Source: Savitreella phatthalungensis
Lineage: Eukaryota
Reading direction: 5' to 3'
Assembly (NCBI GenBank): GCA_051599415.1
Contig: AP039692.1
Span: 248,001-312,000, forward strand
DNA length: 64,000 nucleotides
The notes under the pieces were generated by a model. That model was not told where the DNA came from. It saw nothing but the letters and a program-made list of their open reading frames with translations, and ran no database searches. Shown here piece after piece: positions 50,917 through 61,199 of the stretch (the first letter of the stretch is position 1; each line of letters begins with the position of its first letter). A program made the position numbers and the translations under genes.

Positions 50917-52076
50917 TCGGCTGTCATTAAGCACCAGATGCTCGGCTACCACTAAATAACACGTCGTCGCGTCAAATCTTCAACAGGACGTCCAAAATCC
51001 CCTCGGCTATACTCTTCGTCTGACATTCTCGACCAGAGAATTGCGCGTCTTTTCCAACGAAATATCTCGGCTAGCATGTCGGCTGATTTGTCAACCCAAA
51101 CATCTCGGCTGTTGATGGCACCCTCGGCAAGCCGTCGTACCCTTCTACGTCCCCGAATGACGTCTGAGCATCGCTCGTCAGCCCAGAAAGTGCAGTCGGA
51201 GGGCATCGATACCCGTATGCTACTACGTCTTGTGCAAACACCTCCGACATTGCCCTCGCGATCGCCGCGTACAAGTGAGTATACTAACTGATACGCATGG
51301 GAGGTTAGCCGAGCGACGATGTGAATGACAACGGTGGGTTGCCAAGGCGATGACGCACTGTTGTGGGTGCTCGGCAATCTACTCCACGGCCCGCAACGGC
51401 AATTGCGAACACAGACGCGCCGTTGACAACGGCAATTATCGGCTAAGTCGACGGCAACGGCTGCAGCACGACGGTTGTCGAAAGCATTATCGGCTGGCTC
51501 AATAATAACGGCTGGTTGCTATGTGTGAGGGCTTTTACGTCATTGCAAAAGGGCGTAGATTGCTCGAATTGGGGAATCGATCGACAGGGGAATGCCTCAA
51601 TCGTCGGAGAATTGAAATCACAAGATCGTCACATGTCCGTTGCAAAAGGTTTCCCAATTAGGAAATTCCATGTAATTGGGGTTAACATCGGCTCCACAAC
51701 AGGCACGACCACACTCCGATACCATTGACATCAAAGGTTCACAAAGTGTCCGACATGGCCTAGGATATCGAGGAGAAGGCGTACAGGCTCAAGACTAGGC
51801 TCATTCGACTCCGATAGAGCTCTGCTACACGATGAAATGGCATGTGGAAACGACAAATCAATGCGAACAGACCTTGTTCGTTTTGACAATGTGGCATCCC
51901 CGGCGCGATCACAATTCGAGTTCGTCGTTTTCTAAACTACAATCACCAATCGGTTCCCCACTCGTCACGGAAGGCTAACTCACTGAGACACAACAGACTA
52001 GCCATCTTTTACCTCAATGTCAAAACCATTGAAGAATTATCGGCTACCTTCGGCTACAACGATGGCATTTTCGGCT
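50917..52076 (+). promoter_or_regulatory. Clustered TCGGCT and (C/T)AACGGC motif array upstream of the orphan gene
   Basis: 13 TCGGCT/AGCCGA copies and 5 YAACGGC/GCCGTTG copies counted by eye. Confidence 0.55.
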
Positions 52077-52143
52077 AGGTCCTGGACCCCCGTCGAAAGT
52101 GATAAAAGGAAGCTCAATCCCATTCTTGTTCACCATCTTCTTT

Positions 52144-53289
52144 GTAAGAACCCCTTCAACACTCACTGCTCGTCCGGCCTCGCTGGCGATGACAGAGGGA
52201 TCTTCAATGGCGCGCCAGAGTTTTCCTCAACGGATCTCTCTTGGTAGTCCAGGGCAATTCTCTTAACGAGAGTCCTGGCCGCGTCTAGTAAGATTTTCCC
52301 TCATGGTCATCGTCGGCGGGTCGGGTCGATCGGGCTCGCCTGGCCTAGCCAGCGATGCCAGGGTTTCATCACCCAGTGAGGAGCGATCCGAGCGCCGTCG
52401 TGCGCCTACCCTTTACCGGGTTGGCGTGCGGCTGGTCAGCTTGGACTCTGTCTCGTAACGAGACAGAGTCCAGGCGAGCTCGACGCTTCTCACCGTGATG
52501 GAACAATCCTGGTGTCGCTGGTGAACGGCTGGGACGATGTCCCGACCGGCCCCTTGCCGGCGGCGTTTGAGCGCGTGGGCCAAGTCTTCTTGGTCCACGT
52601 ACCGTTGATCCTCCTATGTTCCCTTCTCGAGGGGAACACGGAGGTCGCGGTGCGTGGATTCATTGAGGCTGGTCTGCGACTCAGGCGTCGTCGCGTCAAG
52701 GGGATAAAACCGGTCGGTGTACTCGTCCCAGCCTAGCCGGTGATGCTACGAGGTAGGTGTCGTCGGTCCACCCAGACCTCGCTCATTATTGAGCGTGTGT
52801 CTGGTTCGGACCGGCGTACCGTAAGTCCTCTCAAGCATCACCGGTGAAGAGGTCAGGTCAAGGCTCGTTCGGACCGAGCTGGCGGAGACGCCAGAGGTTG
52901 TCCTATGCCTTCCCATGGCCGCATTAGCGGTTCTTGGGAGGTGTGGGCGCCTCTGGCGTCTCCGTCGGCGAAGCGTCCGTGCGAGCCCGAGGGCCCACGC
53001 GAGCGCCACCGAGGTTGTCCTCGAGAGGTCATGCCAGTCTTTCAAGACTCTGGTATGCTTCTCGTGGACGCCTCGACGGCGCAAGCGTGGCGTCCGCTCG
53101 AGCCCGAGAGACCCTTGCCTGTCGACGCGTGGGGCGTTCGTACCCCTTCGTTCCTTCAACTCTCTGCCCGTTTACCGGGTCGAGAGACGGAGGGACGAAG
53201 GCGGAGCGTGTCGCCCCGACCGCGTCGTCAGCGAGGCTGCGTCTTGCAGAGCGAGTTCCAGGTTCGAGCACGTCAACTAACATGTATAG
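52144..53289 (+). other. Candidate ~1.15-kb 5'-UTR spliceosomal intron filled with a large branched RNA structure
   Basis: GTAAGA donor at 52144 (alternatives at 52288, 52821, 53053); ACTAAC at 53276-81; TAG at 53287-89; many long stems inside. Confidence 0.65.
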
Positions 53290-53393
53290 TGATACTACTT
53301 CGTTCGTCCTACAACCGGCCGAACAATCTAGCTCTCTGACACTCTACAACTCTTTCGGAACTTCTCCAATTTTCAACTTTCCACTTTAACATC

Positions 53394-54464
53394 ATGGCTT
53401 TCTCTGCTATCAAGTCCATCGCCCTCTTCGGCAACAAGAACTCCAAGAACGCCGCCTCAATTAAGGCTTCCAAGCAGTCCAAGAACGCCTTCTCGGCCTC
53501 TTCTGCTCCTGCTCAGCCCAAGGCGACCAAGTGCACCTCTGACAAGATCAAGGCCACTGTGTCAAAGCTCTCATGCGGTTCGCTCAAGTTCAAGACCAAG
53601 GCCGAGAAGGCTGCTAAGAAGGCTGCAAAGGAGGCTGAGGCCAAGCTCGCCCAGAATCTGGCCGACCGCAACATGTACTTGGTGCCTTACTCTGAGCGTC
53701 TCCTTGGTCCTTCCATCTACGACGCCCCGATCGAGGCTGAAGAGGAGTTTTGCCCTTTCCCCGACGTCGAGACGATGGACGACCTGCTGCGTCATGTCCA
53801 GTTCTACGCTGCTGCTCGCAAGCCTGAATACGCTGATGCCGAGTGCATTCAGTCGCAGGCTGGTGACATCAGCTACGTGCACTCCGAGGCTGGCGAGATC
53901 AGCTGCACCTACTCAGCCTCTATCTACTCGGAGATTCCTACCGCTGACCAGGTCGACGAGGACACCTCAATCCTCGCCGAGACCCTGGGTGCACCTGCCT
54001 CGGGCACAGCTACCCCTACTCCTCAGACTGTCGCCACTCCCTTCGTGGCTGACAGTGCGGACAGCTGGTCAATCGAGCGTCCTTCCGAGATGTTCGCTGA
54101 CATGCTGTCCTCAAAGCTCGAGACCGTCGAGGAGGAGTGCGAGGCTCCTGCAGCCGCTGAGCCCGAGACCACGCCTGCCCCAAAGATTTCCAGCATGTGC
54201 TCAAAGCTGTTCGGCGCCACTACCCCGGACGTCGTGAACACGAACGTGGCTGAGGAGACTGAGGCCTTCTCCTACTCGCTCTTCCCCGAGCGCCGCACCT
54301 GGCACGTGGAGGCAGAGGCTCGTCGTCAGGCCCTCACCCTCGGCGGTCAGGAAAAGCCCACCTACCAGGTCTTCAACTACGACTCGTTCGACGGCAAGGT
54401 CACTGACGTCATCTTCACCTGGGGAAACACTTCCCAAAACCGTCAGGTCGTCAACCAGGCTTAA
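53394..54464 (+). CDS. Orphan 356-aa protein with Lys/Ala-rich N-terminus and acidic middle; no recognised domain
   Basis: Long ORF with strong C/T third-position and AAG/GAG codon bias; good start context (acatcATGG). Confidence 0.85.
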   Translation: MAFSAIKSIALFGNKNSKNAASIKASKQSKNAFSASSAPAQPKATKCTSDKIKATVSKLSCGSLKFKTKAEKAAKKAAKEAEAKLAQNLADRNMYLVPYSERLLGPSIYDAPIEAEEEFCPFPDVETMDDLLRHVQFYAAARKPEYADAECIQSQAGDISYVHSEAGEISCTYSASIYSEIPTADQVDEDTSILAETLGAPASGTATPTPQTVATPFVADSADSWSIERPSEMFADMLSSKLETVEEECEAPAAAEPETTPAPKISSMCSKLFGATTPDVVNTNVAEETEAFSYSLFPERRTWHVEAEARRQALTLGGQEKPTYQVFNYDSFDGKVTDVIFTWGNTSQNRQVVNQA

Positions 54465-54549
54465 GCGAAGCCCAATCCTCCAGTCCTCGGGGCCCAGAAA
54501 GCAGCAAAGCGACCACAAGCGCGCCAGCTAACACAACAGACTAACAATT

Positions 54550-55182
54550 CACCGGATCGGGTCAGAGATACTCTGCAACAAAGACGCGAGGCGCGATGGT
54601 CAGGTGGGACGTGAGGTGATCGAGGATACTGCGCGACAGAGCATCTGGAGTGCGCTGGCGAGGTGCGAGGGCTCTATGGAAAGCTTGTGTGATGAAGAGA
54701 GACTTTGTGGAGGTGGAAAGTGAGCGAGACGTGGGGAAGTCCACTCTTCAAAAAAATCCAACCGTGTCTGCTGGAGTGTGCGACTTTCTTTTCTTTCTGT
54801 TTCACTTCCGGAGGGGAGAACGGCGCCTAGGCGGACGAGCACCCCATACCCAGAGGGACTTGAGGGTGAAACTCGTCCGAAGGAGTCCTGACGATTCAGA
54901 GGTCCTGAATTCTGTCATGCCCAAAGGAAGTGAAACATGAAAGAACAAGGAATCACCGCACGTCACACACAGACATCGGAAGGATGGAAGAGTCGGATCA
55001 AACCTTCATCGAACAAGCTTTTCCCCATAAACATTCTCCTCCCTACTCACAATGTCCTAGATCCTCAATTCTCGTCGGTGAGCACTTCGTGCCTGTGTGC
55101 TAGTGTCTCTTGGCGCTTGACCTACCACGTCATCCATCGCTGCGCGACCACACACGACACTATCTCTGACCTGATCCCGGTG
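54550..55182 (+). other. ~630-nt rod-like structured 3' region of the orphan gene
   Basis: Closing stem 54550-70/55161-82; inner stems 54680-88/55013-21 and 54798-809/54926-37. Confidence 0.65.
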
Positions 55183-55557
55183 GCTGGGGCGTATTGCCAC
55201 CTAGTTGCTTTCTGGGATCCGCTTTCGGCAGGAGGAACTCGCATCGATATGACTAACTTTACAGGTTCTTTGACTATAGCGTACCACGACCGACACGTAC
55301 GACATACACATTCTCACACGACAAGCATACGAACGATTCAAGCATCATAGTACTTTCTCATAGCGTTTGGCAGGATTTTATTCCAAATCTTATTTTTGTC
55401 TTCAGCTGATGAGAATCATGTCCGATGATGTGCACGACACGGTGTGAGACGCATGTTCAGGGATTAGGTTAACGTGGAAGATGATTATGTGCGTGCGTAC
55501 GTTTGAGATTCTTTCTCCTTCCTTTGTCAGCTGGCTCGTCTGTCGATTTCCCGAGGT

Positions 55558-58500
55558 CTAGCCTCTGATCCTGACCGCTGCGTCACCAAAGGCTCTCGGT
55601 TTGGTCGATCGATCTAGGTGGTCGATGCCTAGTGCGTCATCGTGCGATCTGACGAGGTCGTAAGGGACGTCGTCGTCGAGGAGGTAGTGTGGCTTGGTGT
55701 AGGAGATTGAGGCTGCTGGCAAGGCGTTGACGACGGCGACTTTGATCCGCTTGACTTCGTCGGCGTTGAATTTCGCCTTCTCCGCAAGCCGCACTTTCAT
55801 GTCGGCAAAGTATTCCCCGGGTTTCAGCCAGAATCTGAAAGGAATTCCGTGAAGGCGAGACATGTCCTTCTGGAAGTGGAGGACATTGACAAGGCGATCC
55901 TCTTCTGATGTCCGCTCGTCAACCTCAGGCCGTACCATCTCGACGTAGAAGTGGGAGAAATCGTGCAGCATGACAACAGGCACGGTCGACTCGAGCTCGC
56001 GGTGGTAGCGATGGTTGTGGACTTCGTACATCCGCAGAGGCGTCGATGTTGACAAGCCTTCAACTTTTGCCCGAACAAGCGATAGCGCGTCGCTCACGAA
56101 ACCAGTCTTGGCCACGAGCAGATCCAGCGGCACCTCCTTCGTCACGCCCTCGGGCAAGAAGCTTACCTTCAGGACCTTTTTCATTTCGAGCTCTTTCAAG
56201 GTCATCTCCAGCACTTCGTACATGAGCGACTCGCTTGGTTGCTCCAGGTATGCCGGTTGGAGAATGCTGGATAGTGTGGTGGTCGGGATCGGCTTCACGT
56301 ACTGCTTCGGCTGCATGTTGACTGAGCTGACGGTCCAGAGACGCAGATGAGAGGCCTCGACACCCAAGTGCTCCGCAATCTTGGCAGCGATCGTATCGTA
56401 TTGCATCTTCTTACTGAGTGTCAGCTGTGTCGGGGGTGCGGCGATCGCATTGCCGTTTGTGCCACCGACTGCCGCCGCGGCTGGGTCAGGAATTGCTGGC
56501 TTCGGCAGAAGCGTGATCGTCACCTTGTTCTGTACAAAGTCGTAGTAATCCTGTGCGGTCGAGAACTTGCCTGCTTGCATCATGGTGAGACGGTCGGTCT
56601 CTGGGATCACCCGCTGTACACAGACAATGTCGCCATCAACAATCTCGGCCTGCTGGAAAGTCTGACGAAGTCGCAGCGGCTCGATCATGCCTGGCTTGAT
56701 TTCCTCAAACAGCTTCAGCTGCGGGCGATCTGGGAAGTGCACGCTCAACTTCTCAACCAGGGCTTCGATCTTGTCCTGTCGGTGCATGTACTCGACGCAG
56801 AGTCCATTCATCGTTTGGCGCTCCACATCGAACAGCTTGACAAAGAGCATGAAATGCGTGTTGTCCGGTGCGCCATCGACGAGTGGAGCCATCTGTAGTT
56901 TCTCCTCGTCGAGAATCTCAAGATACAGCAAGAACTCAGGCCGACGTGGACCAAACTCGTCACGGAGCTCGGCGAGCGTGTGTACGTCGTACTTCGAACC
57001 GATGACGACATCTGGTCGAATAGTTTTGTTCTGACGATTGACCATGACCCAGTGTCGAATTCGTTCGGGCGCAACGTTGTACGTCTTAGCAGCCTGCTCT
57101 TTGAATTCACCATAAGTTAAGGTCTTCAAGACCTTGTGCGACTCAAGTCTCTTTGGGTCGTAGTCAGTCAGATCGAACCCGGTGTGTTCTTGGAAGTCGC
57201 TTTCGCGAATCACACGGATTTGGAGGTAGAGGTGCATCTCTTCCCGCTCTTTGCGCCAGCGCATCTCCTCCGCAAGCTCTCGCTCGATCCGCTCAGAGAC
57301 GTGCTTTGGTATGTCAGCATCTGCAACGTCACCAAGGATCTCGTCCTGCCGTGTCTCTTGCACATAGACCAACATGTACGCATTCATCGAGCGTCGCAGG
57401 GCCGCAAGACGCGCATTTGGCCTCTGTCCTGGGGCTGGGTAGCCACCACCGAAGTTCTCGTCGAGTACCTCCTTGAGCGTGCATGGCGTGACACGATCGT
57501 CGTCGAATTTATACCACTTGCCGTCCTTCTTTGGCTTCAGCAATGCGTAATAATGACCACCGTGAAGATCTCCGGAATGCACAAGCACACCATGAAGTTT
57601 GTAATTGTAGTTCTGGGCAGGATCAACGCTCGTCTCATCGAGGAATTCCTTCAGGTCGATCTCAAGCGGAAATTCGTGTCGGTCATTAATCTTGACCATG
57701 GCATCCCGCTCCATGTCATACTCGAAGCGCTTCAGCTGGAGATGAAGTACTGGTGGGAAGTTCTGGAAGATGACACCCTTCTTGGCGTCTTGCAAGCCAT
57801 AGCCTTCGGCGAAGTACTTGTTGTCGCCGTCGAGTGTTTCCACTTGGACGTAGTCCTTGAAGGATTCACGTAGATCCTTCAGGCCCTTAACGTTCAGCTG
57901 GATATCCCAGAATTCCTCTTCCCGGGCAGATTCATAGTTGACACCGACGCACTTAATATAGCTCTTCATCTTACCGACAAACAACCTGCTGAGCGCATTC
58001 TCGGCTTTCGTCTTCTTCATCTTGCCCTCGAGGTTGTCCTGAAGAACACGATTGAATTCCTGGACGTCATGCTGCATGAATGCATCCAGTGAGTTCCATC
58101 CGAATGATTGAGTCAACTCGAGCGTTGAAGCAGGTTCTTCTGACTTCTCCATCTGGTAGAAGATTCGCTGAAGCGCCAAAGCGATACTGTTCGTTGGATC
58201 GTCGTTCTCCGTTGGGATCTGATATACCGCCTTGCGGAAATAGGTGGTAAAGTACAGGGATTGCAGGAGTGAGTTCATATAACATGTTGCGCCTTGGTTC
58301 TTCAGACCGACCATGCCAGTGACTTTTTTTGAGTCGTAGTTGTTGAAGTTGTGCCAGAGAACGCCAGTGGGATCCTTGACGATCTTGACGTAGCTCGAGA
58401 TCATCAGTTCGCCGTGCTCCAACAGCGGCCGATCATGGCCATCGTGGTTGTAGCCGAGCTTGCGGATGTCATACAAGCGCGAGAAACCCCAGTCCGTTTC

Positions 58501-59031
58501 GTCATTCGTGAATCGATGGGAGGCGACATTGCTCATGTGAACGACTGACTTGTTGCAGTTCCAGAGGGCGATTCCGAACATGGCACAGCATGCCCAGTCG
58601 CGCTGTTGCTCAGGAGGTGTCTCCGGGTCAATGTCTTCAGGTAAACATTCGAGATATGCTGCGGTCGTGTCCGGCGCTGTGTTACCAGAGGGAAATAGTA
58701 GGAGTCGCCACCTGTGGCCGCCTGCTGACCACCAAGGCGAGTGAACTTTGCGGTCGAGTGATGCCCAGTCAGTAATGTGCCAGTCATGATGGCCGGTAGC
58801 AAGTACTTCTAGGTCATTTGGTGCCTGGAGGAGCTTGTCGAGGAAGACCTGGCCGTCTTCTGGTGTGATTGTCTTTTCATCCGTAACACTCATTGAATCG
58901 TTGGAGTTGGGTACGTGGTTGGCGCCATTCGTGCGTGAGTCGACAAGATCATTGTCGCGCGGTGTTGGTGAGGTATCTATCAAGGGCGTGTCGTTGTCAA
59001 GCGACATGAGGTCATGCTCTAACGGATTCAT
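55558..59031 (-). CDS. UBP15: Ubiquitin C-terminal hydrolase USP7/Ubp15 (MATH + USP + UBL domains)
   Basis: MATH DWGF; Cys box GLKNQGATCYMNSLLQ; QHDVQEF; His box HSGDLHGGHYY. Confidence 0.96.
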   Translation of the reverse strand: MNPLEHDLMSLDNDTPLIDTSPTPRDNDLVDSRTNGANHVPNSNDSMSVTDEKTITPEDGQVFLDKLLQAPNDLEVLATGHHDWHITDWASLDRKVHSPWWSAGGHRWRLLLFPSGNTAPDTTAAYLECLPEDIDPETPPEQQRDWACCAMFGIALWNCNKSVVHMSNVASHRFTNDETDWGFSRLYDIRKLGYNHDGHDRPLLEHGELMISSYVKIVKDPTGVLWHNFNNYDSKKVTGMVGLKNQGATCYMNSLLQSLYFTTYFRKAVYQIPTENDDPTNSIALALQRIFYQMEKSEEPASTLELTQSFGWNSLDAFMQHDVQEFNRVLQDNLEGKMKKTKAENALSRLFVGKMKSYIKCVGVNYESAREEEFWDIQLNVKGLKDLRESFKDYVQVETLDGDNKYFAEGYGLQDAKKGVIFQNFPPVLHLQLKRFEYDMERDAMVKINDRHEFPLEIDLKEFLDETSVDPAQNYNYKLHGVLVHSGDLHGGHYYALLKPKKDGKWYKFDDDRVTPCTLKEVLDENFGGGYPAPGQRPNARLAALRRSMNAYMLVYVQETRQDEILGDVADADIPKHVSERIERELAEEMRWRKEREEMHLYLQIRVIRESDFQEHTGFDLTDYDPKRLESHKVLKTLTYGEFKEQAAKTYNVAPERIRHWVMVNRQNKTIRPDVVIGSKYDVHTLAELRDEFGPRRPEFLLYLEILDEEKLQMAPLVDGAPDNTHFMLFVKLFDVERQTMNGLCVEYMHRQDKIEALVEKLSVHFPDRPQLKLFEEIKPGMIEPLRLRQTFQQAEIVDGDIVCVQRVIPETDRLTMMQAGKFSTAQDYYDFVQNKVTITLLPKPAIPDPAAAAVGGTNGNAIAAPPTQLTLSKKMQYDTIAAKIAEHLGVEASHLRLWTVSSVNMQPKQYVKPIPTTTLSSILQPAYLEQPSESLMYEVLEMTLKELEMKKVLKVSFLPEGVTKEVPLDLLVAKTGFVSDALSLVRAKVEGLSTSTPLRMYEVHNHRYHRELESTVPVVMLHDFSHFYVEMVRPEVDERTSEEDRLVNVLHFQKDMSRLHGIPFRFWLKPGEYFADMKVRLAEKAKFNADEVKRIKVAVVNALPAASISYTKPHYLLDDDVPYDLVRSHDDALGIDHLDRSTKPRAFGDAAVRIRG

Positions 59032-61199
59032 GGTAATTAGGCTGAAGCGACCAGTGAAAGAATATAGCCGCCCACGAGGTTGTCAGACACTCAAAGGAAA
59101 GCTCTCTCAAGGCAAGAGCTGATTGCGAATGTGCAAGAACCCGCGCTAAAGGTTTGAGATCAGGCGCTGAGAGAGGGATAGCGGATGAACAGGGAGTGCG
59201 ATGTCAGTCTTTTGTTGGGTTGCCGCTTTCGTCGTTTCAAAGCCTGCCTGGAGAGGGGCTTTCCGGTCGGAATGAGTGCTTCGAAGCGAACAAGACGGTG
59301 CTTTTTCTACTCTCCTTGATTTACTCAGTTCAGCTAGACGTGTTTGACGTGCTGGCTGACGTGAGGAGGCGGATAGTCTGGAAGGTTGTCGGGTTTGAGA
59401 GGTAATGATGAAGATATGTGATGGAGATGAGATGTGATAGGATGCATGAGGTGGAGGTGTAGAGTATTGTGCTACTAGCTATGCATACTTTGTGCGCTGT
59501 ATCATATAAATTTATAGGTGCGGAAAATGATATTCGTCTAATAGATAATAGCTAATGAAGAGATTGATCTATAGATTGGTCTGTAATCATTGTTTAATAG
59601 ATACTATTCTGCACATATGATTGATCTCGTGTGCTGCATTACGTCGTTCGGGCGCATGGGTGTCGGTATTGGTGTGCATACGTGCAGTATCTTGAGACAT
59701 AAGTGCGTGCACATACGGTACATGACAGACATAGACGCGCGTCTGTCAGCGTTGATGCATCATTTGCATTAGGAAGAAAAGAAATATAGGTTGACTTGCA
59801 TCTGGGGATCACTGAAAGTATATCTGCACAGGGCCAGTCATTCCCTGTCCACTGCAAACGTCCAAGAGCAAAGTGAGCAATCGTCATCGCATAAGGTTCA
59901 AGGATTTTCCAAGCTATTCCCTGTCAGAAGTCTGAACTGGGCATCAAATTTGATCATCTTCGCCTTTCAAATTCTGACGAAGTTGATCAAATAAAGAGTA
60001 TCCATAAAGCCTAGATTCGATCGCAGATCCTAGACTAGTAAGTGAAATTGACATCACTTCAGTGAAAATCATTTATTTCGTCGCTCAAGCTTAGTGAACT
60101 TCAGAGCTCATGCATGAGCAGAGCAGACATGCACTTTTCAGCCTGCACTGCACAAGGACTCGTACCCATCACCCAGTCTGTAACAAGGTCAATTTAAACT
60201 TGATTTTTATGCATTCAGCAGGGACTGACGGTTTATAGTTGATGATTTGGAATATCCAAGAAACGTGCATCGAATCTCACACACGGTAATTACTCCATGG
60301 ATGCACAAAGACGCATCACAGTCAGATCCTTCCAACCCGGGTTTCAAATCACGTCTCTTCTGTCTGTACAGGCACCACGGTCAAGCTCTTTACAAGCTTT
60401 TTCAGGGCAGCATCAAAGACTTTCAGTTCCGCTCAAGACAGGGAAGTCCACCTGGAGACAATGTAGCCTGCCCGAGTCTCTCCTGCAGGCGACACTGGCT
60501 CCTTGTGAAATTTCTGATTTTGGACCACGAACACTTTTCCTCTGACTACTTTCTCACATCCGACCATCTCCCTCACTACCTTGATTGAATCCTCCCCCGG
60601 CAGCTTTACCAAAGTCATCGAGCAATACACTGCCTTGGCTGATGACCATGAAAGCTGTGATGACAGAAACATCACTCTCAAGAAGAGCCAAGATTGAGCG
60701 ACGACCAAACGAGGCAGCGCCTGTTTCGGCTCGAAAAGCCAATGGTGATCAAGTATTCCAAACCCAAGGATGACGTTCCTTGGATAGCAAGATACTTTGA
60801 TCACCCGAGGTCATGATTTGAGCCCCCCGCAAAGCCAACACTCCGGACTAGTGATCCCGCCTATCACTTCACAGATGTGCAGATTGCACTTGCCCTTGCA
60901 TTTGCACTTGCTTTGTGAATTCGTCCCTTATTGAAATGACACCTTCTAGAGTCTAGCCTCTCCCCATCAATCGAATGAGTTGGAAACCGCCGTGAAGAGT
61001 ACTGGTAGCTGGTCTACAGGTCTTATGTGATCGAACATTAAACATACATGAAAAGGGGTCTTACAGACAGACGGTGCAGTCTGGTTATGAGTAGTGTAGC
61101 ATCGCTTCTTGATAGGCACTAGCTCAGACGATCACCCCTACACATTCAATGTCAGTGTCCCTTGCCAGCCGACAGATATCAGTCTGCATAGATCATCAC

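Follow-up and report, generated by a model that had tools for sequence, protein, structure and literature searches.

Two RNA-structure modules, a predicted 3' rod bearing a conserved head and a candidate 5'-UTR intron, around an orphan gene with a paralogue in Savitreella phatthalungensis

Long, almost fully paired RNAs with a branched end are exemplified by C. elegans rncs-1 and by viroid-like rods, and in HAC1 mRNA a long stem carries the 3' bipartite element (3' BE) at its tip. In budding yeasts this 3' BE is a targeting element carried on a 3'-UTR stem-loop, and HAC1 is subject to translational repression through pairing of its intron with the 5' UTR (PMC4279078, as far as the consulted part of that source describes them). 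The intron of RPL7B, with its zipper stem, offers a precedent for a zipper-type intron (PMC12311795, consulted part), and the telomerase RNA of Ustilago maydis is a large structured RNA derived from an mRNA 3' UTR and made from an alternatively spliced precursor (PMC9564094, consulted part). Fungal surveys have described, in the sections consulted, conserved cis-acting structures in UTRs and introns that were proposed to be autoregulatory (PMC8216456, PMC5640933).

Here, we describe a cassette from the window, the 64,000-nt stretch C4:248001-312000 of the 12.7-Mb, 27-contig assembly, in which a rod downstream of an orphan ORF and a larger structured domain upstream of it form one locus that is repeated in a paralogue. 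The likeness to the HAC1 3' BE, judged from the consulted part of its source, is one of a similar way of working only, in that a conserved element is carried on a 3'-UTR stem-loop. Unlike HAC1, the locus holds no bZIP ORF or other Pfam hit and no Rfam match (nothing came near the gathering score at either locus, with three and eight weak rows), the candidate intron is of spliceosomal type and in the 5' UTR, the stalk reaches ~190 bp and the head is a three-helix junction. Compared with the RPL7B-type zipper introns, again as the consulted part presents them, the whole candidate intron of 1.15-1.34 kb is ~78-79% paired in many arms, the gene is non-ribosomal and a second module is located in the 3' UTR. 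The survey motifs span 57-170 nt among the table rows given, and the consulted sections describe neither this cassette nor this lineage. Unlike rncs-1 and viroid-like rods, the structures are embedded in a protein-coding locus and carry no conserved ribozyme. The locus differs from the U. maydis telomerase RNA in being present as two divergent loci, and an identity as telomerase RNA was excluded because the template is missing; no template repeat occurs in the window locus, and the single CCCTAA of the paralogue lies in its coding region. An array of the telomere repeat TTAGGG was seen at one of the 10 contig ends read (L108-L117), namely that at which C2 begins, and a subtelomeric repeat is common to most of the others. 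No published description of the cassette was found in the literature searched, a coverage that mostly left aside subscription papers. The parts appear to work like known elements, while the motifs, their scale and their pairing appear undescribed.

The sequence-only reading had claimed that a region of ~630 nt folds back into a long imperfect rod, and the fold is confirmed. The 3' rod (54550..55182, + strand) starts 86 nt past the stop codon of the orphan ORF and has a stalk of ~192 bp, with arms 54550-54810 and 54925-55182 and many bulges and G-U pairs. Folding of 54540-55192 yielded -281.2 kcal/mol at a z of -11.2; none of 20 dinucleotide shuffles was equally stable, and 164 of the 227 minimum-energy pairs have a probability above 0.9. 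When energies were corrected for GC content, none of 261 random 633-nt windows from the same genome matched the rod, and the longest unbranched path of 192 bp lies beyond that background (median 32, maximum 155), the 155-bp path itself belonging to a low-complexity stretch with a z of -1.0. All 227 rod pairs are retained when 52131-55400 is folded as one molecule, and the register of the stalk is constant to within 10 nt across ~260 nt, with a longest uninterrupted helix of 15 bp. The tip is a three-way junction (54813-54922) rather than a simple loop. The 21-bp closing stem is present as it had been described, as 6 bp, a bulge and 15 bp. The inner stems that had been named are likewise all found at their coordinates. 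Of the ten listed stems tested, seven have pair probabilities of at least 0.95, but the other three (GACGTG/CACGTC, AAAGCTTGT/ACAAGCTTT and GATGAAG/CTTCATC) have a probability of 0.0; the latter two are displaced from the rod register by ~30 nt, and a fold forced to include them loses 6.6 kcal/mol. Three things escaped the sequence-only reading: the conserved head, the paralogue and an upstream domain with far more structure than the rod.

The rod behaves as an RNA element rather than a DNA repeat. The sense strand folds to -279 against -242 for the antisense strand, 37 kcal/mol better, and the ratio of G-U pairs to A-C mismatches is 24:1 in the rod, 25:1 in the paralogue rod and 56:1 and 58:2 in the two 5' domains. 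In a DNA inverted duplication on C16 that served as control, these ratios are 8:8 and 9:6 and the strands fold equally (-424 vs -431). This control (C16:105230-105745, or L052:5230-5745) is a near-perfect inverted duplication with arms of ~230-250 nt, partly copied from an adjoining ORF; it is a possible source of hairpin RNA, and a second hairpin is found at L052:4130-4330. Direct repeats of at least 5 nt, as expected of a target-site duplication, were absent from the ends of both the rod and the 5' domain, and the genome holds at least two DNA matches and at least three matches of the head pattern, at two loci. The rod is not a dispersed miniature transposon (MITE), the case that had been named as refuting, nor a DNA palindrome, given the lack of such a duplication, the two loci found and the G-U-rich, strand-asymmetric folding.

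The proposed placement in a structured 3' UTR fits, since the rod travels with a + strand orphan ORF in the paralogue as well and the sense strand folds better. An A+T-rich region that probably contains the 3' end (55311..55410, + strand) has an A+T content of 0.60-0.66, whereas the stretch from stop codon to rod has 0.42-0.46. It had been pointed out that polyadenylation ahead of the rod would speak against a 3' UTR; going downstream from the stop codon, A+T-rich sequence is first reached beyond the rod, and in the paralogue A+T likewise rises only after the last rod, which is consistent at both loci with a rod inside the 3' UTR. The convergent neighbour here, outside the cassette, encodes USP7/Ubp15 by Pfam (55558..59082, - strand), and its nearest named relatives are in Pneumocystis and Saitoella at ~50% identity, which makes a host within the Taphrinomycotina probable. 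Since the convergent neighbour of the paralogue is a different gene, the rod belongs to the orphan gene.

The paralogue gene is found on contig C7; its protein is 35% identical and the architecture is repeated. Its first rod folds to -283.8 kcal/mol with a z of -7.3 and has 183 bp below the head, compared with 192 here. The stalk arms have diverged in sequence, short motifs excepted. In the segment below the head, the purine and pyrimidine sides are swapped, the purine fractions of the two arms being 0.29/0.76 here and 0.89/0.18 in the paralogue. A second, shorter rod in the paralogue carries a third copy of the head and is not significant alone (z -1.5). The head at the rod tip (54812..54925, + strand) has three helices in ~110 nt, with the order GCGCCU..CCCCAU..GACUUGAGGG..GGAG..GGUCCUG, and its pattern matches the genome three times, against none for a reversed control. 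Six of 35 pairs are changed on both sides, a number reached in 2 of 500 shuffles; as the three sequences are related and the structure was derived from them, this covariation is suggestive only. A pseudoknot of GACUU with an AGGUC loop is compatible with all three copies and is geometrically doubtful.

The family appears confined to these two loci in the searches made. A genome search with TAACGAGAGTCCT gave 10 matches and no family member past the two loci, eight one-mismatch places being left unopened, and both RNA models found nothing new over ~0.63 Mb of sampled genome (~5%). A pair of TCGGCTA sites on C12 appeared unrelated when one of the two was read; at C12:275369 and 315610 (L059, L060) an identical 25-nt match occurs twice, 40 kb apart, in a repeat- or transposon-like stretch. 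Among JGI metagenomes, none of 253 pattern stretches was confirmed and all 14 head-pattern loci were attributable to chance; in IMG/VR, 594 stretches were unconfirmed and the pattern loci (3 of 3 and 10 of 10) were again due to chance.

The orphan ORF (53394..54464, + strand) encodes 356 amino acids, mostly disordered, with a mean AlphaFold pLDDT of 41. Pfam gave no hit for either paralogue and a PDB search was blank; two protein searches returned the query only and a third the two paralogues together with P0124, while in Atlas protein searches the best value was 0.79 in one and the other was blank. The only relatives found are the C7 paralogue and a distant ENA cluster of three proteins that shares the N-terminal motif (E 7.7e-4). 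Two members of this cluster, P0125 and P0126, come from contigs of 2858 and 3151 nt with a 292-aa ORF, lengths close to the 3.2 kb that the cassette spans here. The conserved parts of the protein are a basic N-terminal helix, SCG-x-[IL]-[RK]-F-x-T-x-AEK-x-AKK, and a C-terminal block. Codon bias is strong (AAG 25 and AAA 0; GAG 29 and GAA 3), and the C-terminal block differs from the paralogue by 7 synonymous and 22 non-synonymous codon changes, a weak coding signal. By our own reading, S, A, K and F are abundant and acidic residues scarce in the N-termini (P0124 residues 1-25; window 53394-53600), as in a mitochondrial presequence. If this presequence is real, the 3' head could serve in targeting to mitochondria.

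The upstream domain is probably a 5'-UTR intron, judged by its sequence signals. This candidate spliceosomal intron of 1146 nt (52144..53289, + strand) has a GTAAGA donor, ACTAAC at 53276 and a TAG acceptor, from which splicing is predicted; donor, branch point and acceptor are in order and conserved across both genes. The domain adopts a multi-arm fold of -732.6 kcal/mol at a z of -33, and its counterpart of 1342 nt in the paralogue folds to -820 kcal/mol at a z of -31 (15 shuffles each), with ~78% of nucleotides paired here and ~78-79% across both. CTTCTTTGTAAG and CAACTAACAT are conserved in that counterpart, and both domains start with CTTCTTT/GTAAG, with a TATA-like element ~40 nt upstream, and end in CAACTAACAT plus YAG. 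Other candidate introns within the window are mostly shorter than 100 nt, and the genome is compact. Three consecutive 300-nt windows of the domain have scores between -7 and -9.5; of 1980 windows sampled from the genome, the C16 DNA repeat is the only one beyond -5 on this scale. Elsewhere in the genome sample, tandem repeats at L077:8361-8994 (z -4.5, one strand) and a transposon-like stretch at L093:200-833 (z -4.1) are also structured. The longest helix in the 5' domain is 21 bp, and with helices of at most 15-21 bp the two 5' domains are not simple inverted repeats.

A basal 'zipper' helix (52172-52191 with 53223-53243, + strand), partly conserved in sequence on both strands, places donor and branch point ~60-70 nt apart in the predicted fold; its predicted pair probability is 0.24-0.6 here and 0.64-1.0 in the paralogue. 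Near the 5' end of the domain, an alignment defines a conserved three-way junction (52208..52288, + strand), both hairpins of which have a loop ending in YAAC. It has one copy here and two in the paralogue, the second of which, outside the set used to build the model, scored 28 bits (E 9e-6), so that the copy numbers of junction and head agree, 1:1 here and 2:2 in the paralogue. The junction pattern matches the genome exactly at three places, which all fall within these two loci, but a reversed control gave seven. Pairing between junction and head (loop UCCUCAA with head UUGAGGG, 7 bp) was considered and is unsupported, as cofolding gains 0.2-10 kcal/mol and cognates are not favoured. The putative TATA-like element (52100..52109, + strand), ~40 nt before the candidate donor, aligns with GATATAAG of the paralogue, and the region upstream of it (51000..52100) holds clustered TCGGCT(A): 11 TCGGCT, and 10 in the matching 1.1 kb of the paralogue, where the background maximum is 4 among 340 windows of 1.1 kb. 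From this enrichment the cluster probably represents transcription-factor sites.

The explanation we favour, with confidence that is about even, is a cis-regulatory mRNA architecture in which a stalk displays the head and splicing gates translation. The rod would be one of a pair of RNA-structure modules under selection in the pre-mRNA of a small gene family specific to this lineage, a pre-mRNA presumed to be transcribed through both. Selection on the stalk would act on pairing and on a length of ~185-190 bp while leaving the sequence free, and the stalk would insulate and present the ~110-nt three-helix head. The head, by analogy with HAC1, may bind a trans-acting protein that sets mRNA localisation, translation or stability; the earlier idea of a platform for a dsRNA-binding protein fits this. 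The upstream kilobase domain would be the 5'-UTR intron whose basal helix brings the donor to the branch point. All 13 upstream ATGs here and all 16 in the paralogue fall within the candidate intron, and unspliced RNA, with these 13-16 ATGs in a very stable structure, would go untranslated, which would make splicing the gate to expression. The support comes from two loci in one genome, and the zipper probability of 0.24-0.6 here, a donorless acceptor-like motif ahead of the rod and a functionally uninformative protein stand against this cis-regulatory account. Furthermore, a splicing zipper needs far less folding than a z of about -32 across more than 1 kb, and the account leaves the bulk of the 5' domain unexplained.

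An unlikely alternative, which is suggested by the splice-like motifs around the rod, is that the structures are themselves products, the 5' intron persisting as a stable RNA derived from the lariat, with the rod being released as an RNA of its own, and that both would act in trans, e.g. as decoys or scaffolds for dsRNA-binding proteins. The rod could be freed by splicing of the leader donor to an acceptor at 54539, which skips the ORF, or by back-splicing of 55190 to 54540, giving a rod-shaped circle of ~650 nt. A branch-point and acceptor-like motif (54527..54539, + strand) immediately precedes the rod; the 160 nt ahead of this motif contain no GT[AG] donor, and the paralogue has CTGAC..TAG at the equivalent position. 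After the rod, a possible short 3'-UTR intron (55191..55264, + strand) combines a weak GTATTG donor with ACTAAC at 55252 and a CAG acceptor, and the paralogue shows GTGTGT..TACTAAC..TAG after its first rod. In both genes, acceptor-like motifs thus flank rod 1, immediately ahead of it and 64-82 nt past its end, and this flanking, the extreme folding and the enrichment of RCTAAC-N2-12-YAG at both loci (3 per locus, where the background strand has 13 per 400 kb; Poisson ~5e-5, calculated post hoc) favour released RNAs. All three such motifs on the + strand of the window fall in this locus. However, the donors after the rod are weak (GTATTG, GTGTGT) and differ between the paralogues, and the motifs could instead bind a branch-point-type protein. 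As read from its sequence, the motif at 54527-54539 could be the ORF-skipping partner of the leader donor, a back-splice site or a protein site. A combined scheme, which we consider improbable, would have a single Pol II locus use alternative acceptors to make the protein mRNA and two viroid-like RNAs, a kilobase lariat-derived one with the YAAC junction and a ~650-nt rod, linear or circular, with the head. Junction and head would be a matched pair acting e.g. as host-encoded dsRNA decoys or as a sensor of dsRNA processing.

Doubtful as well is the proposal that the hairpins are RNase III substrates, either for Pac1-type attenuation or termination or as sources of small RNAs loaded on Argonaute. 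The genome does encode one Argonaute and one protein with RNase III and dsRBD, and mRNAs of S. pombe are repressed through Pac1 cleavage of stem-loops (PMC8421224, consulted part). The two loci concerned are C4:668669-669571 and C2:871650-871922, respectively. However, the rod has no helix longer than 15 bp and the 5' domain none longer than 21 bp, cleavage has no need of a conserved branched head, and since the arm sequences have diverged the paralogues share no guide. The Dicer/milRNA precursor that had been offered as one option is disfavoured on the same grounds, conservation residing in the short-helix head and not in the arms. Genome searches for Dicer_dimer and RdRP were blank, a weak result as they had no positive control, and this genome may have a reduced RNAi pathway.

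A still less probable origin would make the cassette the domesticated relic of a structured RNA replicon (a viral segment, satellite or viroid-like RNA) or of a mobile element. Replicon RNAs are typically folded to such a degree, the protein is an orphan, and the two loci are dispersed with differing neighbours. Against such a relic, the promoter-like region and the splice signals are shared between the loci, the codon bias is strong and host-like, no relatives were found in IMG/VR, no target-site duplication of at least 5 nt was seen and folding is strand-asymmetric. No Rfam ribozyme was found at either locus up to E 10, and a hammerhead core-like string at 54888 is missing from the sense strand of the paralogue. 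Finally, a MITE, an inverted DNA duplication that has decayed or a fold arising by chance from G/C strand skew can practically be dismissed, for although the 5' arm of the rod is G-rich and the 3' arm C-rich and skew alone yields rod-like folds elsewhere in the genome, the dinucleotide-shuffle z is -11, the G-U/A-C asymmetry differs from the DNA-repeat control, and there are two loci only, with a conserved head and no target-site duplication of at least 5 nt.

Two RNA motifs that have no Rfam entry are hereby defined, in an architecture that places ~1.8 kb of very stable RNA structure around a 1-kb ORF in a compact genome. A fixed stalk length combined with diverged sequence makes the cassette a directly testable case of RNA as a fixed-length spacer. 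If the modules are released as RNAs, they would amount to viroid-like dsRNA mimics produced by the fungus itself, with a bearing on how dsRNA is handled in fungi whose RNAi is reduced.
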